Part shown: one piece after another, positions 4,520-31,995 of the stretch
How the letters are laid out: the number at the start of each line of letters is the position of its first letter
Position numbering within the stretch: position 1 is the stretch's first letter
IMG/VR virus record: IMGVR_UViG_3300033120_000337
Coordinates: 8,448 to 72,447 of that record
DNA length: 64,000 nt
Source of the DNA: a virus
Taxonomy: Duplodnaviria; Caudoviricetes
Reading direction: 5' to 3' (one strand)
Notes under the pieces: model-generated
The model's database searches: none
The model's input: the letters and a program-made list of their open reading frames with translations, nothing else
What the model was told of the DNA's origin: nothing
Position numbers and translations under genes: made by a program

Positions 4520-5140
4520 TCAGCCCACTCCAGACAACTTCGCCACAGTGGCAGCTACAATTTCAGGTAGGACTTCCCCATAGGCTTCAGGAAGTTGGAA
4601 GCTTCCCATCTGAGTCTTCTTCTGCTCGTCCAGGTGAGTTGAGAACTTCCCCATGACTTCGTGGAGGAAGTTCCAGACATCTGGCTGACCTTCGGTCATG
4701 GGGTTCTTCTTCTGATCAGAAGCCAACCTACGTGCTCTCAACACAAGAGCATGCATCTCGGGTGGCTTCAAAGAAGCCCACAGAATCGCCTTTGTACCTA
4801 GGGGGGACAAGAGATTCGTGGTTGTGTCCAGATGGTTCTTCAGAAGACGCTTGAAAACGTCTGTGCGAGGCACAGTCTTTCCCTGGTAGATCTCTGGAAA
4901 CATAGGAGTCCAGAGACCTTCATCGTACGATGAGACCAGGAAATTCATTCCATGCAGGAGCCAGAACTCGTATCCTGTCCCAGTCCCTATTTCGGGTGAC
5001 GCAGCGAACTTTGAGAACGCTGTGACCCTCTTCACCTTGAACTTGACAGCTTCCTGGGCACGTACAAGTTGTCTGTCCTTTGCTTTCTCTTTCGACTTTT
5101 TTGCTCTTGTGTTCCCCTTCTTCTCTCGATTTTTGGTCAT
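4520..5140 (-). CDS. hypothetical protein with basic N-terminus
   Basis: 206 aa ORF divergent from the chaperonin gene. Confidence 0.6.
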   Translation of the reverse strand: MTKNREKKGNTRAKKSKEKAKDRQLVRAQEAVKFKVKRVTAFSKFAASPEIGTGTGYEFWLLHGMNFLVSSYDEGLWTPMFPEIYQGKTVPRTDVFKRLLKNHLDTTTNLLSPLGTKAILWASLKPPEMHALVLRARRLASDQKKNPMTEGQPDVWNFLHEVMGKFSTHLDEQKKTQMGSFQLPEAYGEVLPEIVAATVAKLSGVG

Positions 5141-5174: not shown

Positions 5175-6740
5175 GTGCTCACAATAGATCGAAGAGAAGT
5201 CTGGACTCAACTCGCAAGCGGGGTGCACGAAGTTGCACGGGTCGTGGAGAAAACCTATGGCCCTCAGGGAGGGAAGGTTGCGGTTTGGAAGAACGATGCT
5301 GTTCTGATCACAACAGACGGTGCAGCTCTGACAAGGGAGGCTCAGCTAGGTGGGCAGAAAAGAATCGGGGCGAAGCTGGTGAGGGCAGCTGCAATCCAGA
5401 CTGAAAAGGAAGTTGGAGATGGGACCTCAACAACGGTACTTCTGACGAGTGCTCTTGTTCGTGAGGTTGGGAAACTGTCGGTTGTTCCAGATTGGAACCC
5501 TGTTCAGGTTGTTCGTGAATTACAAGAGTCCTTTCTCGTTGCTGAAAAGTGGATTCGCAGCAAGTCGATACCCACGGACAATGAGAGCCTGCACAGGATC
5601 GCATCCATGGCAAGTCATGAAGACCCTCTCATAGCGACAAAGGTTGTTGAGGCTGTCTTGTCTGTGGGTGATGAAGGCTCTGTTGTGATCTCTCCCTATG
5701 AGGGGGTTGATATCGTACTGGAGCAAAAAGAAGGACTTCTCTTGAATCAGGGTTGGTCCTCTTTTGCTATGGCTCCATCTGAAGGCACTGAGCGCGAGAT
5801 GGATGGGCCCCTCGTGGCGGTGTTCCGAAAGGGAGTTCGAAAAATCTCTGAGATATCCCCTGCAATGGAGCAAGCTAGTCAATGGCCTGGACGTGGTCTT
5901 GTGGTGTTTGCCCCGTCAGTATCTGGGGAAGCACTACGGACTCTCATCCTCAATGACAAAAAGGGAGTCTTGTCCAGTGTTGCTGTTGAGTACGCGGGGT
6001 ATCCAGCGGACCTTCAAGACTGGTTGGAGGACATTGTTGCAGTCACGAATGCAACACTTGTAGATCGTGAAGCGGGCTTGGCCCCAGAAGACTTTGAGTC
6101 TTCCTGGCTTGGTTACGCTCGGAAGATCTCAGTGTCTCGCAGCAAAACACTTCTCATCTCCTACATGGACGAGGACATCCTAACCAACATTGATAGGAGA
6201 GTTCACATCCTCAAAGACCGTGCTGAGAAGTGTCCGTACCCCTATGACCAAGACCGACTCTTAGAACGGGCAGCATCCTTGGATGGAGGCCTGGCTACTT
6301 TGAGGGTGGGCGGAAACACAAAACAAGAGGGTCAGGACAGAAGGTCTCGAACTGAGGATGCACTTCGTGCAGTTCAGACTGCACTTCGAGGTGGGGTTGT
6401 TCCAGGAGCTGGACGTACGTATTTTGGAGCCTCGCAAGAACTCCCCCCCACGGTAGGTGGAGGTATTTTGAAGTCTGCTCTCCAGTCTATTCTTGGAGTT
6501 CTAGTCACCAGATCTGGACTTGAGTCCTCTGTGGTTCTTGCACAGGGGTCTGAATACCATCGGATGGATCTCGAAGGTTGGTGGGGTTATGACCCTGTAT
6601 CTAGGTCTTGGAGAGACTTTAGAGAAGGTTCTCGGATTGTGGACCCTACTGAAGTAGCTGTAAGTGCCCTTCGAAATGCAGTGTCAGTAGCTTGTCAGAT
6701 TGCTTTGTGTGGTGGTGTTGTTGAGTCTAAAAAACGGTAG
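5175..6740 (+). CDS. groEL: GroEL-like chaperonin (phage-encoded)
   Basis: TYGPQG, TTDGAAL, GDGTSTTVLL, GGVVPGAG and IVDPTEVAVSALRNAVSVA motifs. Confidence 0.9.
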   Translation: MLTIDRREVWTQLASGVHEVARVVEKTYGPQGGKVAVWKNDAVLITTDGAALTREAQLGGQKRIGAKLVRAAAIQTEKEVGDGTSTTVLLTSALVREVGKLSVVPDWNPVQVVRELQESFLVAEKWIRSKSIPTDNESLHRIASMASHEDPLIATKVVEAVLSVGDEGSVVISPYEGVDIVLEQKEGLLLNQGWSSFAMAPSEGTEREMDGPLVAVFRKGVRKISEISPAMEQASQWPGRGLVVFAPSVSGEALRTLILNDKKGVLSSVAVEYAGYPADLQDWLEDIVAVTNATLVDREAGLAPEDFESSWLGYARKISVSRSKTLLISYMDEDILTNIDRRVHILKDRAEKCPYPYDQDRLLERAASLDGGLATLRVGGNTKQEGQDRRSRTEDALRAVQTALRGGVVPGAGRTYFGASQELPPTVGGGILKSALQSILGVLVTRSGLESSVVLAQGSEYHRMDLEGWWGYDPVSRSWRDFREGSRIVDPTEVAVSALRNAVSVACQIALCGGVVESKKR

Positions 6741-11579: not shown

Positions 11580-13181
11580 ATGTTACCAAAGTCTGCAAAA
11601 GCTGACATAACCCCCATTCGTCAACGTACCCAGTACACCTGTATGGGTGCCTCTCTCAGTATGTGTCTTGGTGCTCAAGGCATGAAGACCACTGAGGATG
11701 TGGTCAACAAAGTGATGGGCTGTAAGCCGATGCAGGGGGCTTCCTGGGAACAAGCCCTAGCTGCGGCACAGCACTTTGGGATGCGAGCTACTCTTGTGAC
11801 CCCATGCTCGATGACACAACTTCGAGAATGGACCGACCGAGGCGTAGCTGTAATGATCGCCTGGAACCCTGAGGGTCGTGATTGGTCACATGCCTCAGTC
11901 GTGTTTGATGTGACGGATGATGCTGTTCACATTGCAGACCCAAACATCCCCGATCCAGAACAAACTGTGAGAGTGATCTCCAGAACAGAGTTCTTGGGGA
12001 AGTGGGGGGAGAAATGGCCCGACTACATCGTGAGACGCCCTGCTCTAGCTATTGAACGGGAGATCACAGAAGACGGCCGACAAGTTCAAGCTTCAATGTC
12101 GGAACCTATCAATGAGGTTTTCGACTGGGGCTTCGTTTCTGTTTCGAAAGAACCTCTCAAGACCCGTCCAGATTATGGGTCTCTTTTGGAGAACAACATG
12201 TTGATTACGGCTGAAGATTTCCGGGCTGCTCTACTCTCTGACCTCCCAGCACAAAAGAGTTCAAAGTTCGAGAAGGGTAAGCCTGCGGACCCAACGAAGA
12301 ACATGTCTCCGGAGGACGCTGATGAGTGGGAACGCCAGAACAAGGAGAACAAGGACAACTTCAAGTCTGCTGAAGACTTGGACTCCGCCTACTTTCGCAA
12401 GTCTGCGTCTTCAGAGAATCGATTCCTCATCTCATGTGGGGAATACGAGGCAGAACTCAAGGAGTCTAAGTTCGAGAAGGGGAAATCTGTACCTCTCTCA
12501 GAACTCCCAGATGAGCTTCAGGAGAATGTTGAGAACCCTCCCGAGTCAGTGAAGAAATTGACTGAGAAGCTGAAAGACAAGGCTGCTTCGAAAACTGCTG
12601 AGTCTGACAAGACCGCTGCCTTGGGGCTCTATGGTTTCACGAAGGAAGCTGAACGTGTCTGTGGTTCAGCAACAAATCGACTCTCCAAGTTCACAACAAA
12701 ACTTGCGAAGGAGATCTACACCAAGGATGCTGAGACCTCTTCGTTCTTGGAAGAGCACGAGAAACGTACAGGGTCCAGAGCTGCCCGTATGCTCCGAGCT
12801 TGTATGGGGGACATTGGTCCTGGGCCCAAGAAGACCGCCGCGAAAAGAGAGAGTGGTAGATATGGTTACAGCACCAGGACAGCTAAGCTAGCCCTCCAAG
12901 CGTGTTCGGATGTGGAGCAAGAGGCAGGGATTATCGCCTCAGACCTTCATGAGCGTATGGGCTCAAAGCACTCTTCCATCACAGGATATCTGGGAAAGCA
13001 TGCCAAGAGCGCGAAGTGTGGCTGGAGTGAGATGATACAAGAGGCATATCCTCCTGCCCCTGCTCCGATCACAGCATCCGTCAATGAGATCATCAGTTGG
13101 CAGGGTGGGAAGAACACATCCAGATCAGCAGGTTCGTTCTTGGCCGCAGAAGATGATGAGGATGAGTCCGAGGAGGACTAG
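11580..13181 (+). CDS. C39-like cysteine peptidase fused to acidic internal repeats
   Basis: IRQRTQYTC (catalytic Cys), WSHASVV (His) and IADP (Asp), then SKFEKGK x2 and KTAA..YG(F/Y) x2. Confidence 0.7.
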   Translation: MLPKSAKADITPIRQRTQYTCMGASLSMCLGAQGMKTTEDVVNKVMGCKPMQGASWEQALAAAQHFGMRATLVTPCSMTQLREWTDRGVAVMIAWNPEGRDWSHASVVFDVTDDAVHIADPNIPDPEQTVRVISRTEFLGKWGEKWPDYIVRRPALAIEREITEDGRQVQASMSEPINEVFDWGFVSVSKEPLKTRPDYGSLLENNMLITAEDFRAALLSDLPAQKSSKFEKGKPADPTKNMSPEDADEWERQNKENKDNFKSAEDLDSAYFRKSASSENRFLISCGEYEAELKESKFEKGKSVPLSELPDELQENVENPPESVKKLTEKLKDKAASKTAESDKTAALGLYGFTKEAERVCGSATNRLSKFTTKLAKEIYTKDAETSSFLEEHEKRTGSRAARMLRACMGDIGPGPKKTAAKRESGRYGYSTRTAKLALQACSDVEQEAGIIASDLHERMGSKHSSITGYLGKHAKSAKCGWSEMIQEAYPPAPAPITASVNEIISWQGGKNTSRSAGSFLAAEDDEDESEED

Positions 13182-13481
13182 GCTCTACACAATCCATTCT
13201 GGTGCATCCACCAGTGGAAGGGAATTGCCTGATGCAAGGGGAGTGTGAACTCCAAAACCTCGCGAGCAATTGAACCAGGCTTGCCATAAGCAAGACGAAT
13301 TTTCTCTAGCCTGTCTGGTTTGAAGCTCACTTGTGCAGGAGAGTAGCCCGTGTGGGAGTCAATTACAAAACTCAATTTTCCTCCGATGGTTGTGAACACC
13401 TAAAATGTCCTACCCCTACTTACACCCTAGGTTGTCGTTTTGGGGTCTATAAACCATCTAAAGCAACCATTCAAAAAATCC

Positions 13482-17439: not shown

Positions 17440-17460
17440 GCTTTCAAGATGGTTTGGAGA

Positions 17461-17976
17461 TCATGTCTTCTTCTTCTCAGTGAGAGCTTTCTTCGTGAAG
17501 GTCTTTCGGGCGAAGTCCAAAACCATGTTCGGGTTGTCTGCCATCATCGAGACTAGAGCTTCCTTGTCTCTCTGTAGACCCACCATAGCACCCACAAACT
17601 TCTCCGTGATTCCCCCGCTCAGGTAACTGAGGAAGCCATTCTTCTCGATGTTTGGGAACTGTAGTGAAACAGACTTGTAGGAGCCACCAGATTCAGATTC
17701 AGGCACTCGAACCACGCCAAGAGACTCATTGAGAACCTCCTCGATTCGGAATCGGATATCTGTAGACCGATCCGTCTGTTCCTGAATTTGGTACAAGGCA
17801 CTCAGAAGGTAGACGGACTCAGCATGAAAGTGCTTGAGTGCCCAGTAGAGGGTCCGAGGATCTTTGTCCTTCTCGTACTTGTTGAGCGCATTTTCCAGCT
17901 GCTCATCAAGGTGTTGTCGCTTTTTATGTTGCACGTCTACGTTGAGATTCTTTTGGTTCTTCCGTTTACCCAACAT
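17461..17976 (-). CDS. hypothetical protein
   Basis: SD AGGAGG upstream of ATG 17976. Confidence 0.6.
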   Translation of the reverse strand: MLGKRKNQKNLNVDVQHKKRQHLDEQLENALNKYEKDKDPRTLYWALKHFHAESVYLLSALYQIQEQTDRSTDIRFRIEEVLNESLGVVRVPESESGGSYKSVSLQFPNIEKNGFLSYLSGGITEKFVGAMVGLQRDKEALVSMMADNPNMVLDFARKTFTKKALTEKKKT

Positions 17977-19378: not shown

Positions 19379-20556
19379 TCATCGAGAACTCAAACCAACT
19401 CGAATGAAGTTCTCAACCTCATTCGGACGGTAGAAGAGACTGGGGTCTTGTAGAAGAGCCTCCCGAGCTAGTCGAACAGGTTCCTGCCTGTCTCTACCTG
19501 AGAGATTGAACTCTGAAATGAGACCCTCGTTGTCGACCTGAGGTCTGCGTAGGAGGGCCGTAAAGGATGTTCTCTCCGCTAGGGTCATTGAAGACGCTAC
19601 TCGACGCAGAGAGGCTTGCTGAGAGGCCGTGAGGAACCCCAAAGACTGTGAACCCAACCCTAGGTCTGCCATGTCGAGTAGAAGCAAGACATCGTGGGAG
19701 GTGGTTTGAAACTGACCTGCCATGTAGGAGGCGAAGGGTCTCTGGGTGGCGATCATCTTGGCCAGCACCTCAATGAGCCCAAAGGGCTTCATTGTGACGA
19801 GAGCCTCTCGGGCCCCAGTACCCGAGAGGATGTTCTGAACCAAGATGGTGGAGACTGCTTCCCAGGGCATGTTCTGAAGCTTCTCGGCATTCTTTCGCAT
19901 TGAGGTCTCAACCTCAGGTGAGATTTGAAGCCCGTACTTCACGAGGAACTTGATTGCCCGCAACATCCTTGTGGGTCATCGGAGAAAGTCCTGTCAGGAT
20001 CTAGGGGGGTCTGGATGACCTTTTCCGATAGGTGGCGTAGCCCAAGACCTGTGAGGTCAAGGACTTCAACCCCGTCAGGCCCATTCGTTAGGTCTCCCAA
20101 TCTCCACAACAGGGTGTTGACCGTGAACTCTCGACGGTAGACGTCTTCCTCTATCGTGGCGGGCTGAACATCTGTTGGCTTGTAGCCCTTCCCTTTTCCA
20201 GATCCTCCATAGGACTCCTTCCGTGCGTTGGCGATTTCAATCACCTCTCCGGACATCTGAGCCCCATCCAGAGTCCAGTCTCCACAGACAGTGATGATGG
20301 CCACCCCGTACTGGTTGGTTGTGACGTTGGAGGTCACGGGAATCGCGTTTGCGACCTTCTTGGCAAACCAGTCAGAGTCCCTCCCACCCAAAGCAACAGA
20401 ATCGACCACTACATCGATATCCTTCACCGGAACTCCAAGTAGGTGGTTTCTCACTGCGCCTCCAACGACATAGATGTGGTTGCCCACTCCATTGTGGTTG
20501 GCGACATCCGAAAGGATTCTCATGAGTCCGGTTGTCTTTTGGTTTGTCTTAGTCAT
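19379..20556 (-). CDS. cca: class II tRNA nucleotidyltransferase (CCA-adding enzyme / poly(A) polymerase family), interrupted by a -1 frameshift at ~19974
   Basis: YVVGGAVRNHLLG, KDIDVV (DxD), EIANARKESY and RREFTVN motifs. TFSDDP continues as [T]RMLRAIKF in the -1 frame; GAC CC[C] ACA AGG restores ~392 aa. Confidence 0.8.
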
Positions 20557-21177
20557 TTGGTTCCTGGGAAAACACTCCCACAAGGTCTGAGGGGCTACAA
20601 GGACCCTCAAGTCGATTCCTGGGAGATGTCGTACATCCACAGACCTCTGAAGGCATCCGAGTAGGCTCTGTCAGGTTCTACCTAGACACCAAGAAAGTCT
20701 TCCTGTATACCAGCCCCTCGTTTCGTTTCCTGTTGTGTTGTTTCAGCAGGACGTGGAATTCCCTCTCGTCTACGATCTCCTGACCTCTTCCCAAAGAGAC
20801 TGGATAAGTACCCGAGGACAAGTAGGCCTTCTCCATCATGAGGTCTTACGGGGTTCCGGACTCGAAAGAGTCGTAGAGCGTCACGGTCGCTATCTACGAA
20901 ACGGTCTCCCCAACGCGAGAGTTTTGGGATCAAGACAAAGGACTCGTCTTGTGTAGTCGCCTACAAACCTGAGGCACTCAGAGGTCTGTTACGTAAGAAC
21001 ATACCTTGTCATCTATCTGCCCTCCCGTTCCAGTGGTTAGACTTCCTCTCATGCGAGAGTAGAGAGGATCAAAGTCTAAGAAGGAATAAGGATCACTCTG
21101 AGAGGAGGATCCAAAGAGAAGTAAGGGAAATAAGGGGATAGATGTTCCTTGAGAACACTTTCAAAATTCAGAATACA

Positions 21178-24544: not shown

Positions 24545-24680
24545 TCAAGCGAATTGGAAGTCAGACTACAACCAAGCAGATGGTCGCGGGTTCGAATCCC
24601 GTCCTTCGGGTAAAACCGGAGGTAGCTCAGCGGTAGAGCATCCGCCATATACACGTCTCCTTCCGTTCTTTGTCGCTTGA
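24545..24680 (+). ncRNA. Y-RNA-like RNA 3 (YrlA-type, circularly permuted tRNA mimic)
   Basis: TCAAGCGA/TCGCTTGA terminal stem; order is T-arm (GCGGG-TTCGAAT-CCCGT), closed acceptor (CCTTCGG-GTAAAA-CCGGAGG), D-arm (GCTC-AGCGGTA-GAGC); no anticodon loop. Confidence 0.85.
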
Positions 24681-24686
24681 ACTATT

Positions 24687-24838
24687 CCAGAGGTGGAATA
24701 CCTGTGAGGACTACATCTAAACCTCAGTGTCGCTGGTTCAAGTCCAGCCTGCCCCGCTTCTATGGGGGAGTAGCTCAGTTGGTAGAGCATGAGAATGTCC
24801 ACGCTAAAACTTGTCCGCCTCACTAACTTCCTTCCTGG
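24687..24838 (+). ncRNA. Y-RNA-like RNA 4 (YrlA-type, circularly permuted tRNA mimic)
   Basis: GAATAC, GTGAGG/CCTCAC stem, TACA; T-arm GCTGG-TTCAAGT-CCAGC, closed acceptor CTGCCCC-GCTTCTAT-GGGGGAG, D-arm GCTC-AGTTGGTA-GAGC. Confidence 0.8.
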
Positions 24839-25236: not shown

Positions 25237-25305
25237 TTATGCCGGAATCTCACCACCATGTTCCCAGGGATGGGACTCCACATGGTGGTCCGGCTCCAAC
25301 TAAAC

Positions 25306-25378
25306 GGGCATGTAGCTCAGCTGGGAGAGCGGTGGCTTTGCAAGCCATAGGTCAGGGGTTCGATCCCCCTCTTGTCCA
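25306..25378 (+). tRNA. tRNA-Ala(TGC)
   Basis: Canonical, G3-U70; loop TTTGCAA. Confidence 0.95.
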
Positions 25379-25379
25379 T

Positions 25380-25520
25380 GGGAAGATAGCTCAGGAGACG
25401 TCTAAGACGTTCGACTTGTCTGAGGAGTACGGGAGACCAAGGGCCCAGAAACAAAGACAGTTCAGAGCGGCGAGCCAGTAAGCTCGGTGCGCGTCGGTGA
25501 AAATCCGATTCTTCCCACCA
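25380..25520 (+). ncRNA. tRNA-like RNA with 72-nt D-loop, 6-nt anticodon loop and encoded CCA
   Basis: GGGAAGA/TCTTCCC-A-CCA acceptor; GCTC...GAGC D-stem; CGAGC-CAGTAA-GCTCG arm; GTCGG-TGAAAAT-CCGAT T-arm. Confidence 0.65.
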
Positions 25521-25716
25521 TTTTCCGATAGGTAGTGAATGCCAAATGCGCCTCGAACCATGAGGAATGAGCGGGGCTAACCACTATCCTTCGGAATCCA
25601 TTTACTCCTGAAGATGTTGCAAGTAGGTGTCCTGGAAGGTCTTGGGCCAGGATAGGAGTTCTCCCCAAGAGAAGGGTTCAAGTCCCACTACTTGCAATGT
25701 CTTCAGGTGTAGTTTC

Positions 25717-25788
25717 TCCGCCAAAGCATAAAGGGTGATGCCCCGTCTTGGTATGACGGTTAACTGGTTTCAAGCACCAGTGGTGGCT
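25717..25788 (+). tRNA. tRNA-Thr(GGT)
   Basis: CCGTC-TTGGTAT-GACGG; 6-bp acceptor; T-arm CTGGT-TTCAAGC-ACCAG. Confidence 0.6.
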
Positions 25789-25798
25789 TGTTTCTTTA

Positions 25799-26207
25799 GG
25801 GTCTGTACTGGTTTCGACAGGGTGTGCGAATAGAGAGAGTGCGTGTCGGGCTTCGTCAGGTCAGCTCGTTAAAAAGATGTGTCAAATAAGCTGCCAACTC
25901 AAACAGCTACGTTCCCGCCGCAATGGCTGCGTGAACCGTGGGTACGTGTAGCCGCCTAGGGCGACATGTACTTGCGTAATCAAATCTAGGTAAAAACCCC
26001 GGCTTTTCTTCAGCGGGGGGTCGCAAGACTACTCTGAGGGAATGGTGGAGGGTACTACGCGAACCGTGGAACCCCTAAAGGTGGCCCGTTGGGGCTGGGC
26101 ATCTTAGGTCAAGAGGCTTGCTTCTTGACCACCCGAATTCCAACTACACACGTAGGACTCGATCTAACTAGCCATTTTGGACGTGGGTTCGATTCCCACC
26201 AGATCCA
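25799..26207 (+). ncRNA. ssrA: tmRNA; tag peptide (A)ANSNSYVPAAMAA*
   Basis: 5' GGGTCTGTACTGGTTTCGAC; acceptor GGGTCTG/CAGATCC with G3-U70; T-arm GTGGG-TTCGATT-CCCAC; resume codon at 25893 after AAATAAGCT; stop at 25932-25934. Confidence 0.92.
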
Positions 26208-26216
26208 TCAGTGAAT

Positions 26217-28311: not shown

Positions 28312-28396
28312 TGGGTTAGGCAACTTCGTGCAGACAAAATGTCACTGATCATGACGTCGTTGTCGGTCGTTGCCCAACTCAGTTTCTCAGTTCTAT

Positions 28397-28471
28397 GAGG
28401 GGATAGCCCAACGGCAGAGGCAGGGTCTTTAAGATTCCCCAAGGTGGTGGGTTCGAATCCCCCTCTCCTTA
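28397..28471 (+). tRNA. tRNA-Leu(TAA)
   Basis: Positional count gives loop TTTAAGA; weak anticodon stem; short variable arm. Confidence 0.7.
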
Positions 28472-28476
28472 GTTTT

Positions 28477-29959: not shown

Positions 29960-29998
29960 ACAAGTCGCGGTTCTAGGCCTGATCAGCAATGTGATAAT

Positions 29999-30085
29999 GG
30001 AGGGTAATCTCGGCCGGGCCGAGCACTGCCTTGAAAACAGAGGGCTCCTTGAAAGAGGGGTGGAGTTCGACTCTTCTGCTCTCCA
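29999..30085 (+). tRNA. tRNA-Ser(TGA)
   Basis: Loop CTTGAAA; long variable arm. Confidence 0.82.
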
Positions 30086-30256: not shown

Positions 30257-30363
30257 TGTGTGAACTCAACACAACCTCCTAGAGGGTGACGTGTTCTCAC
30301 AATTTGTCCTCCAGAAAACTGGAGGAAGGAATTCCTGTTCAGGAAAACATCGGGGTAGATACT

Positions 30364-31995
30364 GTGGCAAACAAGAATCTCTTTCAATCCGCTCCAGCGG
30401 GTCGCGTCGCGCCGATTGCCGACACAGTCAACGCAGCTGGTGGTTTGGCGTACAAGGCTTCTCAGAAGGAAGCTCTTGCTCAGTACGTGGCTACTGGTTG
30501 TCTGGGTTCAACGTTCTACTCGACAGATGAGGAACAGTTGGACACGATCTTGAAGCTCGCTGCTTCAGTGGATCCTGAGTTCGTTGCGAAGGCAGCGATC
30601 TACGGACACAAGTCAGCCTTCATGAAGGACGCTCCGGCCCTCCTTCTGGCTCACCTCATGACACGTGGAGAGCCTGGTATCGCAGCCATGAAGTCTGCTT
30701 TCTTCCAGGTCATCGACAACCCAAAGATGATGCGGACTTTCGCTCAGATTGTCCGGTCTGGTCGGGTTGGTCGAAAGTCTTTTGGTACGGCACCAAAGAA
30801 GCTGATTGAGACTTGGTTCCTGAACCGTACAGATGCTCAGTTGATCCGTGCAACAGGTGACAAGCCTTCGATTGCAGACGTGGTCAAGATGGTTCACCCA
30901 AAGCCAGCCACACCTGAGCGGAAGGAAACTTACGCTTGGCTCGTGGACAAGAAGGTCGACCTCGAAAAGGCAGATCCTCTTCTTCAGGAGTACGAGGCTT
31001 GGAAGAAGGACACCACTCGTCCGATTCCTGATGTTCCGTTCCTCATGCTCTCGAATGCGAAACTCACGAAGTCTCAGTGGGTGGAAATCGCACTCTCTGC
31101 TTCTTGGCAGACTTTGCGTATGAACATCAACACGTTCCAACGTCACGGTGTTTTCGAGGACGCAGCCACGGTCAAAAAGCTTGCAGACAAGCTTCGTGAT
31201 GAGGACTCGATTCTTCGGGCTCGGGTATTCCCATACCAACTCCTTGTTGCGTACAAGCACACTGAGGCTGCTCCCATGGAGATCCAGAACGCTCTTCAGG
31301 ATGCGATGGAAATTGCGACCAAGAACGTTCCTTCCTTTGATGGTCTGAAGGTTGCGGTTTTCCCAGACGTGTCTGGGTCTATGGCTTCCCCAGTCACAGG
31401 CACTCGAAAGGGTGCTACTTCGAAGGCTCAGTGCAGAGAGGTCGCTGCCCTCATTGCAGCTACGATCCTTCGTAGGAACCCAGATGCCATTGTTCTTCCC
31501 TTCAAGGAAGACATTGTGAAGCTGAGGTTCAACCCACGCGATTCGATCATGACGATCGCCAAGCAGATTGCGGAATGCGGCTCAGGTGGTACAGACTGCT
31601 CAGCTCCTCTGAGGGCTCTGAACGCAACCAAGGAGAAGGTGGACATCTGCATCTTCGCCTCGGACAATGAGTCTTGGATGGACAGCAAGGTCGTTCAAAA
31701 CTCTTGGTCCTCTGGTTACACATCATCGGCTACCAAGTCGATGATCGAGTGGGAGGCAATCCGTGCTCGGAACCCAAAGGCGAAGTTGGTTTGCATTGAC
31801 CTCGCTCCCAACGGCTCACGTCAGGCTCCTACACGTGAGGACATCCTCAATGTAGGCGGATTCTCGGATGAAGTGTTCACCCTCATGTCTGAGTTCGTAA
31901 AGGGCTCAGGTAGAGATCACTGGGTGAAGAAGATCGAGGCGATCGGTTCAAAGCCTACAGAAACGAAAAACGTTCCTGTAGAGGCTTCACCTTAG
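30364..31995 (+). CDS. rsr: Ro60/Rsr ortholog (TROVE domain + vWA domain)
   Basis: Probable GTG start (ANKNLF..ADTVNAAGG.AY..ALAQYVATGC); FPYQLLVAY; vWA MIDAS DVSGSM; GGTDCSAPL; SDNESW; ILNVGGFSDEVF. Confidence 0.92.
   Translation: MANKNLFQSAPAGRVAPIADTVNAAGGLAYKASQKEALAQYVATGCLGSTFYSTDEEQLDTILKLAASVDPEFVAKAAIYGHKSAFMKDAPALLLAHLMTRGEPGIAAMKSAFFQVIDNPKMMRTFAQIVRSGRVGRKSFGTAPKKLIETWFLNRTDAQLIRATGDKPSIADVVKMVHPKPATPERKETYAWLVDKKVDLEKADPLLQEYEAWKKDTTRPIPDVPFLMLSNAKLTKSQWVEIALSASWQTLRMNINTFQRHGVFEDAATVKKLADKLRDEDSILRARVFPYQLLVAYKHTEAAPMEIQNALQDAMEIATKNVPSFDGLKVAVFPDVSGSMASPVTGTRKGATSKAQCREVAALIAATILRRNPDAIVLPFKEDIVKLRFNPRDSIMTIAKQIAECGSGGTDCSAPLRALNATKEKVDICIFASDNESWMDSKVVQNSWSSGYTSSATKSMIEWEAIRARNPKAKLVCIDLAPNGSRQAPTREDILNVGGFSDEVFTLMSEFVKGSGRDHWVKKIEAIGSKPTETKNVPVEASP

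Follow-up and report, generated by a model that had tools for sequence, protein, structure and literature searches.

A candidate tRNA-like gene with a structured 72-nt D-domain and an encoded CCA in the tRNA island of a huge phage

What is a gene in a phage tRNA array that has the stems of a tRNA, a 72-nt domain where the D-loop should be and a CCA end written into the DNA? Such arrays are usually taken as codon supplements or as substitutes for cleaved host tRNAs. The candidate considered here, 141 nt long, lies at 25380–25520 on the array strand of the window, by which we mean the whole 64,000-nt stretch of DNA analysed (bases 8448–72447 of a 72.4-kb IMG/VR virus contig).

The tRNA island and its neighbours

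CheckV puts the contig at 16% completeness, so the window is a piece of a huge phage. Its tRNA island occupies 23.1–32.7 kb and holds 33 ARAGORN tRNAs and a tmRNA, every one on the plus strand. No sigma-70-like promoter was found in the island, nor any terminator-like site close to the candidate. The upstream neighbour is tRNA-Ala(UGC) (25306–25378, plus strand; called by ARAGORN and Rfam), and a lone U (25379) separates its discriminator from the first nucleotide of the candidate. The tmRNA (25799–26210, plus strand) follows 279 nt downstream.

The spacer between candidate and tmRNA (25521–25798, 278 nt) is itself strongly structured, with an MFE of −103 kcal/mol and z = −3.55. Within it lie a hairpin bearing a GAAUGC word (25523–25596), a 20-bp helix with a T-arm-like GGG-UUCAAGU-CCC (at about 25602–25712) and a three-hairpin domain (25718–25787). 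Another spacer, the one past tRNA-Met, is occupied by a long hairpin both in the window (25237–25305) and in locus L002 (4269–4340), with conserved ends (GCCGGA ... UCCGGCUCCAA). Two further places in the island deserve mention. Positions 29998–30085 scored 46.9 bits against the tRNA-Sec model, whose gathering score is 47, with no ARAGORN call; since tRNA-Ser is missing from the ARAGORN calls of the island, the site may encode a tRNA for Ser or another one with a long arm. The ARAGORN call at 28396–28472 is a tRNA of suppressor type whose anticodon, UUA, reads UAA; with Rfam's tRNA model it scores 28.7, barely under the cut-off.

Pfam annotation of 28 neighbouring proteins revealed replication and repair genes, a phage Ro60 and a CCA-adding enzyme, and no aminoacyl-tRNA transferase among the 28. 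No gene for a Fem-type transferase (FemAB family) as a partner was seen on the 72-kb fragment, which is about 16% of the genome. The Ro60 gene (TROVE and vWA_Ro60 domains; 30286–31995, plus strand), given here as context only, starts 4.8 kb downstream of the candidate. Two YrlA-type Y RNAs sit inside the tRNA array, 5.5 kb upstream of Ro60: one at 24691–24823 (53 bits), about 0.6 kb upstream of the candidate, and one at 24579–24642 (36 bits), both under the Rfam gathering score of 69. The CCA-adding-type nucleotidyltransferase lies on the minus strand at 19.4–20.6 kb (19379–20640), as two overlapping ORFs, with the head domain in 19939–20640 and a weak RNA-binding-domain match in 19379–19966. 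Relatives carry this enzyme as a single ORF of 403–547 aa; the division may reflect a frameshift, a sequencing error or a real split.

Fold of the candidate and readings of its loops

An earlier note, made from the letters of the window, had drawn the candidate as a tRNA-like RNA, and the elements that it named are all present. The acceptor stem is perfect over 7 bp, GGGAAGA (25380–25386) pairing with TCTTCCC (25510–25516), and is followed by the discriminator A73 and a genome-encoded CCA (25517–25520), so that the 3′ block spans 25510–25520. U8 and A9 come next to the 5′ acceptor strand and, together with the 5′ strand of the D-stem, take up 25387–25392; in this stem GCTC (25389–25392) pairs with GAGC (25465–25468). 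In place of a D-loop there is a 72-nt D-domain (25393–25464), which starts with A14 G15 and ends with A21; G18 G19 are missing from their usual place. The anticodon-like arm (25470–25487) can form the 5-bp stem CGAGC/GCTCG with the 6-nt loop CAGTAA, as in the note and in ARAGORN's drawing of the insert-free sequence; in an alternative reading it has four pairs, a G·G mismatch and the 8-nt loop CCAGTAAG. The variable region UGCGC (25488–25492, 5 nt) supplies a C48 able to form the Levitt pair with G15. The T-arm GUCGG-UGAAAAU-CCGAU (25493–25509) has a 5-bp stem with one G·U and a variant loop, U54 G55 A56 A57 A58, and G53–C61 is kept. Altogether the stems comprise 20 pairs, one of them G·U, plus one G·G topping the anticodon-like stem. 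The four cloverleaf stems are thus kept together with the core (U8, A14, A21, G15–C48, G53–C61, U54/A58), and the parts of the elbow, G18 G19 and U55 C56, are swapped for a folded domain and a UGAAA-type T-loop.

Both pairings that the note had seen within the D-domain are present. The GACGT/ACGTT hairpin is GACGTC-TAA-GACGTT at 25397–25411, 6 bp with loop UAA, beginning 4 nt past the D-stem and recovered in the MFE and constrained folds. The TGTCT/AGACA complementarity is a TTGTCT/AGACAG helix (25416–25421 with 25455–25460), which in the constrained fold closes a second sub-domain (25416–25460). This contains GGAGUACGGGAGACCA, similar in pairwise alignment to a stretch of the insert of a comparable gene in locus L005 (see below). 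An unconstrained MFE fold keeps the acceptor, anticodon-like and T arms and replaces the D-stem by other pairing. With an MFE z-score of only −1.63, thermodynamics alone would not have picked out this site.

The architecture is rare by chance. We scanned with a strict cloverleaf descriptor that allowed a D-loop of 15–160 nt, using both strands of dinucleotide-shuffled windows as the control. The candidate was the sole site in the real window; shuffled windows gave 0.075 sites each, none followed by CCA.

Measured against the tRNA definition behind RF00005 and ARAGORN, the candidate has the cloverleaf of 7-bp acceptor, 3–4-bp D, 5-bp anticodon and 5-bp T stems with a 7-nt T-loop. It departs from the definition in its anticodon loop, CCAGUAAG (8 nt) or CAGUAA (6 nt) with C33 rather than 7 nt with U33 and purine 37, and in its elbow, a 72-nt D-loop and T-loop UGAAAAU rather than a D-loop of about 7–11 nt and the G18 G19/U55 C56 contacts. 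ARAGORN makes no call at the locus. RF00005 gave no match at E ≤ 10 in either the 9.9-kb or the 161-nt Rfam search, and the latter yielded no accepted family; a weak pemK-RNA match (E = 1.6) was dismissed. That neither program reports the candidate exposes a blind spot. When the insert was deleted in silico, 26 of 36 variants were called by ARAGORN, as a tRNA whose anticodon loop has 6 nt. Conversely, genuine tRNAs align to a covariance model of the candidate at 30–42 bits by skipping the insert; used as a search model, this single-sequence model (R1) matched only ordinary tRNAs and missed the L005 gene.

The deletion result raises the second of two proposals in the note, that this is a tRNA gene with an intron at a non-canonical site, the D-loop, removed after transcription. 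D-loop introns occur in archaeal tRNAs, and the D-loop that would remain here, AG..UUCA, resembles short GG-less D-loops (e.g. AAUUCUAC) of G55 tRNAs in related phages. However, neither junction shows a bulge-helix-bulge in constrained or free folds, and splicing would leave a non-canonical product, in which the 6-nt loop and the G55 A56 T-loop persist. A group I intron is a poor fit too: 72 nt is far too short (these have at least 200 nt), the insertion is not in the anticodon loop, and Rfam gave no intron match. Finally, neither tRNA_int_endo (PF01974) nor RtcB (PF01139) is found on the contig of the window or in five related records; one of the five is the complete 169-kb phage genome to which L099 belongs, and that genome carries a gene of the same design. 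That a complete carrier genome has no splicing endonuclease or RtcB counts against an intron, and we regard this reading as highly improbable.

The anticodon-like loop bears on another suggestion. The note had speculated that, were one C lost in assembly, the loop would read CC-AGT-AA, as for a tRNA-Thr(AGT). Put in full, the candidate would be a decoding tRNA-Thr(AGU, read as IGU), tolerant of C33 and of an enlarged D-arm, that replaces a missing Thr(GGU). Position offers a circumstantial point in its favour: the syntenic slot of relatives holds tRNA-Thr(GGU), which the window is missing. G35 U36 A37 A38 suit Thr, and other tRNAs with A34 (Leu AAG, Arg ACG) exist in the island. Nor is C33 by itself an argument against decoding, since it is fairly frequent in phage tRNAs, occurring in 61 of 958 parsed tRNAs of the fetched loci outside the G55 group (about 6%); it is also seen in a canonical-looking tRNA-Thr(GGU) at L004:6169–6242, with C33 in place of U33 in the loop CCGGUAC. 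There is, however, no overall similarity to Thr tRNAs. The loop has 6 or 8 nt instead of 7, and without G18 G19 and U55 C56 the flat elbow surface, which is used by the ribosome and by the CCA-adding enzyme, is missing. The "anticodons" of the comparable genes in other phages (AAU, UAG in a class I body, and an 8-nt loop) share no identity, and we know of no decoding tRNA with a 72-nt D-loop. A decoding function is, we believe, quite unlikely.

Sequence within the D-domain suggests a different connection, to the Ro60 gene 4.8 kb downstream and the YrlA-type RNAs 0.6 kb upstream. The candidate contains ACUUGUC, the conserved 3′-strand word of the YrlA consensus (AcUuGuc), flanked by CUCAGG and UCUGAG, which could form the terminal helix of a module. 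Nucleotides 11–45 would then be a Ro60-binding module set on a tRNA body, a hybrid Y RNA tethering Ro60 to whatever binds the acceptor end. But the CUCAGG/UCUGAG pairing competes with the D-stem, the 5′-side GAAUAC/GAAUGC word is absent, and the YrlA family (RF02553) gave no match even in the 161-nt search at E ≤ 10. The motif is also absent from the comparable genes of L005, L098 and L103. A 7-mer match in 141 nt has a chance probability of about 1%, and many features were inspected. We consider this hybrid very doubtful.

Genes of similar design in other large phages

For comparison we used 160 loci from viral and metagenome collections, recovered via the Ro60 protein. The outcome of the homologue search depended on what was compared. 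At the level of sequence it was negative: blastn against INPHARED phages, and blastn and nhmmer against the 160 loci, matched no more than the adjacent tRNA-Ala; scanning IMG/VR with exact and degenerate patterns gave new matches that were all coding, and every match in GTDB genome scans was coding as well. At the level of architecture, similar genes were found in four other lineages of large phages.

These emerged from a relaxed cloverleaf descriptor with a large D-loop, which gave 80 matches in 2.43 Mb. We scored each for six core tertiary features that the descriptor did not require (U8, A14, A21, G53–C61, A58 and Y54). Seventy-two matches had four or fewer, and eight had all six: the candidate, L005, L098, L099, L103, L111 and two artefacts. 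The member in L005 (2269–2412) has an 81-nt D-loop; L098 and L099 (both 5321–5416, one phage in two samples) have 32 nt; L103 (8517–8605) has 25 nt; and L111 (16400–16534) has 72 nt, with a 6-nt loop and an ordinary T-loop. D-loop size across the four other lineages is therefore 25–81 nt. Rejected as members were L014:7121–7277, which is two tandem Arg tRNAs, and L040:7422–7515, a tRNA with a long variable arm; L005:1512 (an HNH coding match) and L006:5870 (coding) were also discarded. Taken to 7519, the L040 tRNA has its ACCA encoded; its loop reads CUUAUAA, an arm of roughly 28 nt separates the anticodon arm from the T arm, and ARAGORN labels it "tRNA-???" with a 4-base anticodon.

The candidate and the members in L005, L098 and L103 share more than the features that were scored. 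All four have G55 in the T-loop (UGA, CGG, UGG and UGC, respectively), which the descriptor scans did not demand; the pattern YGNAAAY is expected in about 1 of 1000 chance matches. C32 C33 is found in three of the four, as is a satisfied R15–Y48 Levitt pair. A 6-bp hairpin begins 4 nt past the D-stem in the candidate, L005 and L103, and the corresponding helix of L098 begins two nucleotides earlier. The candidate and the L005 and L098 members each start 0–1 nt past a tRNA-Ala. In a structure-based alignment the stems vary between lineages while pairing stays, in 82 of 84 cells, with two-sided changes in 18 of 21 pairs; since the search itself had demanded pairing, the covariation is partly circular. 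For the acceptor and T stems, RNAalifold agrees when given a MAFFT alignment; in the D-stem 3′ strand and the anticodon stem the MAFFT alignment was wrong, hence the structure-based one. Evidence for a class that does not depend on the search comes from the core nucleotides, the type of T-loop and the place in the genome. Sequence similarity from member to member is near nil, so homology rests on architecture and position.

A cultured phage, Myxococcus phage Mx1 (OR576727, our L166), has Ro60 and a tRNA island of the type seen in the window. Directly past its tRNA-Ala is an unannotated 140-nt stretch (13110–13250) with tRNA-like words (GGGACUG UA GCUU; a canonical T-arm) and no resolvable cloverleaf.

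Altered elbows also occur in phage tRNAs of ordinary size. G55 (TGC or TGT in the T-loop) is present in about 3% of the tRNAs called in the fetched loci, most of which are without the D-loop GG. Normal-length tRNA-like genes with T-loops UGCAAAU or UGUAAAU and GG-less D-loops were noted at L100:8298–8368, L103:9037–9110, L152:17077–17149, L154:16298–16368, L111:16096–16169 and 17448–17518, and L149:4511–4583. The anticodon loops of these genes are unusual in having G33 or A33, or a length of 8–10 nt, and several of the genes have no ARAGORN call.

The encoded CCA was described in the note as the only one in the island, and the count agrees: none of the 32 parsed ARAGORN tRNAs has CCA past the discriminator, and the tmRNA ends in A-UCA. 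L098/L099 repeat this arrangement, the gene with the expanded D-loop encoding ACCA and the ordinary tRNAs none (0 of 32). The L005 member is without CCA (it reads GACA), in a locus where 30 of 38 tRNAs encode it, and at L103 all four parsed tRNAs do so. From these last two tallies, encoded CCA is distinctive in two lineages only and is not universal for the class. It is a significant peculiarity of those two independent lineages, in which CCA is written into the odd gene and is absent from its neighbours. The phages of these loci encode CCA-adding-type enzymes.

Recurrence and CCA both bear on whether the candidate is a decaying tRNA gene, perhaps the slot's former tRNA-Thr, that took a 72-nt insertion into its D-loop and is drifting without function. 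Five close relatives have tRNA-Thr(GGU) downstream of tRNA-Ala(UGC), three of them within 1–5 nt, and the CC-AGU-AA loop would fit such an origin. In L002 there is, at 4915–4985, a slightly degenerate, uncalled Thr(CGU)-like gene between tRNA-Ala(UGC) and tRNA-Thr(GGU), in which the 53–61 pair is A·G. Loss of CCA from the L005 member would also suit decay. In the candidate, however, four stems and all six core nucleotide features are intact, and there is no resemblance to Thr tRNAs. CCA is present in it and in no ordinary tRNA of its island, and four other lineages, whose sequences are quite different, have the same unusual design. We therefore think decay unlikely.

Proposed role and relation to known RNAs

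Because four other large phages have similar genes, the candidate is probably a working tRNA mimic rather than a normal or intron-bearing tRNA or junk. The first proposal of the note, a tRNA-shaped scaffold with an extra domain, has fared well, since expanded, hairpin-bearing D-loops are found in those lineages with like core nucleotides and location. Our reading, which on balance we favour, is that the candidate is a maintained, functional, non-decoding tRNA mimic of the phage array, freed by the tRNA-processing machinery.

By established tRNA biology, RNase P would cut the polycistronic tRNA transcript at G25380, freeing tRNA-Ala as well, and the 3′ end would be trimmed to the encoded CCA. 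The same biology suggests why CCA might be hard-wired: the rebuilt elbow would be a poor substrate of the CCA-adding enzyme. The resulting RNA would display a genuine acceptor/T minihelix whose 3′ end is mature; its odd loop and bulky elbow would exclude it from EF-Tu and the ribosome. Most likely it would serve during infection as a decoy or sink, occupying factors directed at the 3′ ends or elbows of tRNAs. As a second choice, it could carry an amino acid outside translation, like staphylococcal non-proteogenic tRNA-Gly; the pointers to this putative aminoacylation are two features of the sequence, the intact acceptor/T minihelix and the encoded ACCA. In either role the D-domain may serve as a variable binding platform.

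More broadly, and only tentatively, we suggest that huge phages have evolved tRNA mimics of a modular kind: the core and a hard-wired CCA are kept, and an exchangeable RNA domain (25–81 nt) takes the place of the elbow-forming part of the D-loop. Enzymes directed at tRNA, or toxins of host defence, might charge such an adaptor or bind its 3′ end, and a second partner, perhaps the Ro60 particle of the phage, might be recruited or blocked through the D-domain. The RNA would then be a Y-RNA-like tether of opposite topology. Phage arrays, on this evidence, carry in addition to adaptors some maintained tRNA-derived RNAs that are unfit as ordinary adaptors, with the core fold kept and the elbow rebuilt. 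Lying near Y RNAs, tmRNA and a phage CCA-adding enzyme, the candidate is a concrete handle on the use of elbow and CCA end in phage–host conflicts over tRNA.

To our knowledge no bacterial or phage tRNA-like RNA has been described with both a structured D-loop domain and an open, CCA-ended acceptor. Our literature search returned only analogies, namely YrlA, non-proteogenic tRNA-Gly, T4 RNA C and RNA D, and archaeal D-loop introns. Compared with canonical tRNA (RF00005), the candidate shares the 7/4/5/5-bp cloverleaf, U8, A14, A21, R15–Y48, G53–C61, U54/A58, the setting in an array, and discriminator plus CCA; it differs in having a 72-nt structured D-domain where tRNAs have a 7–11-nt D-loop, in lacking G18 G19 and U55 C56, and in C33 and a 6- or 8-nt anticodon loop. 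Archaeal tRNAs with D-loop introns likewise have an intervening sequence within the D-loop of a tRNA-shaped gene, whereas the candidate has no bulge-helix-bulge, belongs to a bacterial virus and would give a non-canonical product upon removal. RNA C and RNA D of phage T4 are small RNAs, not tRNAs, made from that phage's tRNA cluster, and their roles are still unknown (PMC3014915); the analogy with them is of context only.

The tRNA-like domain of tmRNA is similar in combining an acceptor and T-arm with a large foreign insertion, and in its need for a CCA end. There, however, the insertion replaces the anticodon arm, and tmRNA has the G3·U70 alanine identity and a tag reading frame; the candidate has G3–C70, no reading frame, a retained anticodon-like arm and no RF00023 match.

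The D-loop of the staphylococcal non-proteogenic tRNA-Gly (NP1-3) is also without GG. These tRNAs have T-loop TGC or TGT in place of TTC, are charged, and bind EF-Tu and the ribosome poorly (PMC7826273). Their UG(C/U) in place of UUC, which removes the pseudouridine-55 site, is matched by UGA in the candidate, whose UGN T-loop and GG-less D-loop make up the same altered elbow (the T-loop part of this definition being taken from PMC7826273). The tRNA-like genes of related phages resemble them as well, with UGC or UGU and GG-less D-loops. The staphylococcal RNAs differ in their normal size, U33, true UCC anticodon and known partner (FmhB/FemA/FemB).

YrlA (RF02553) is comparable as a tRNA-mimicking non-coding RNA encoded close to Ro60, with copies in the very same island. 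Its ends form the Ro-binding helix, which replaces the anticodon arm, and its acceptor is closed by a loop. The ends of the candidate, by contrast, form an open acceptor with CCA, a plain 7-bp helix without the GAAUGC/ACUUGUC internal loop of Y RNAs (ACUUGUC occurs only internally), and its insertion is in the D-loop. If expressed, it would be a tRNA mimic of new architecture, combining a domain inserted into the D-loop with an open, CCA-ended acceptor. Mimics of tRNA in phage tRNA clusters are known, and the candidate is a variation on them.
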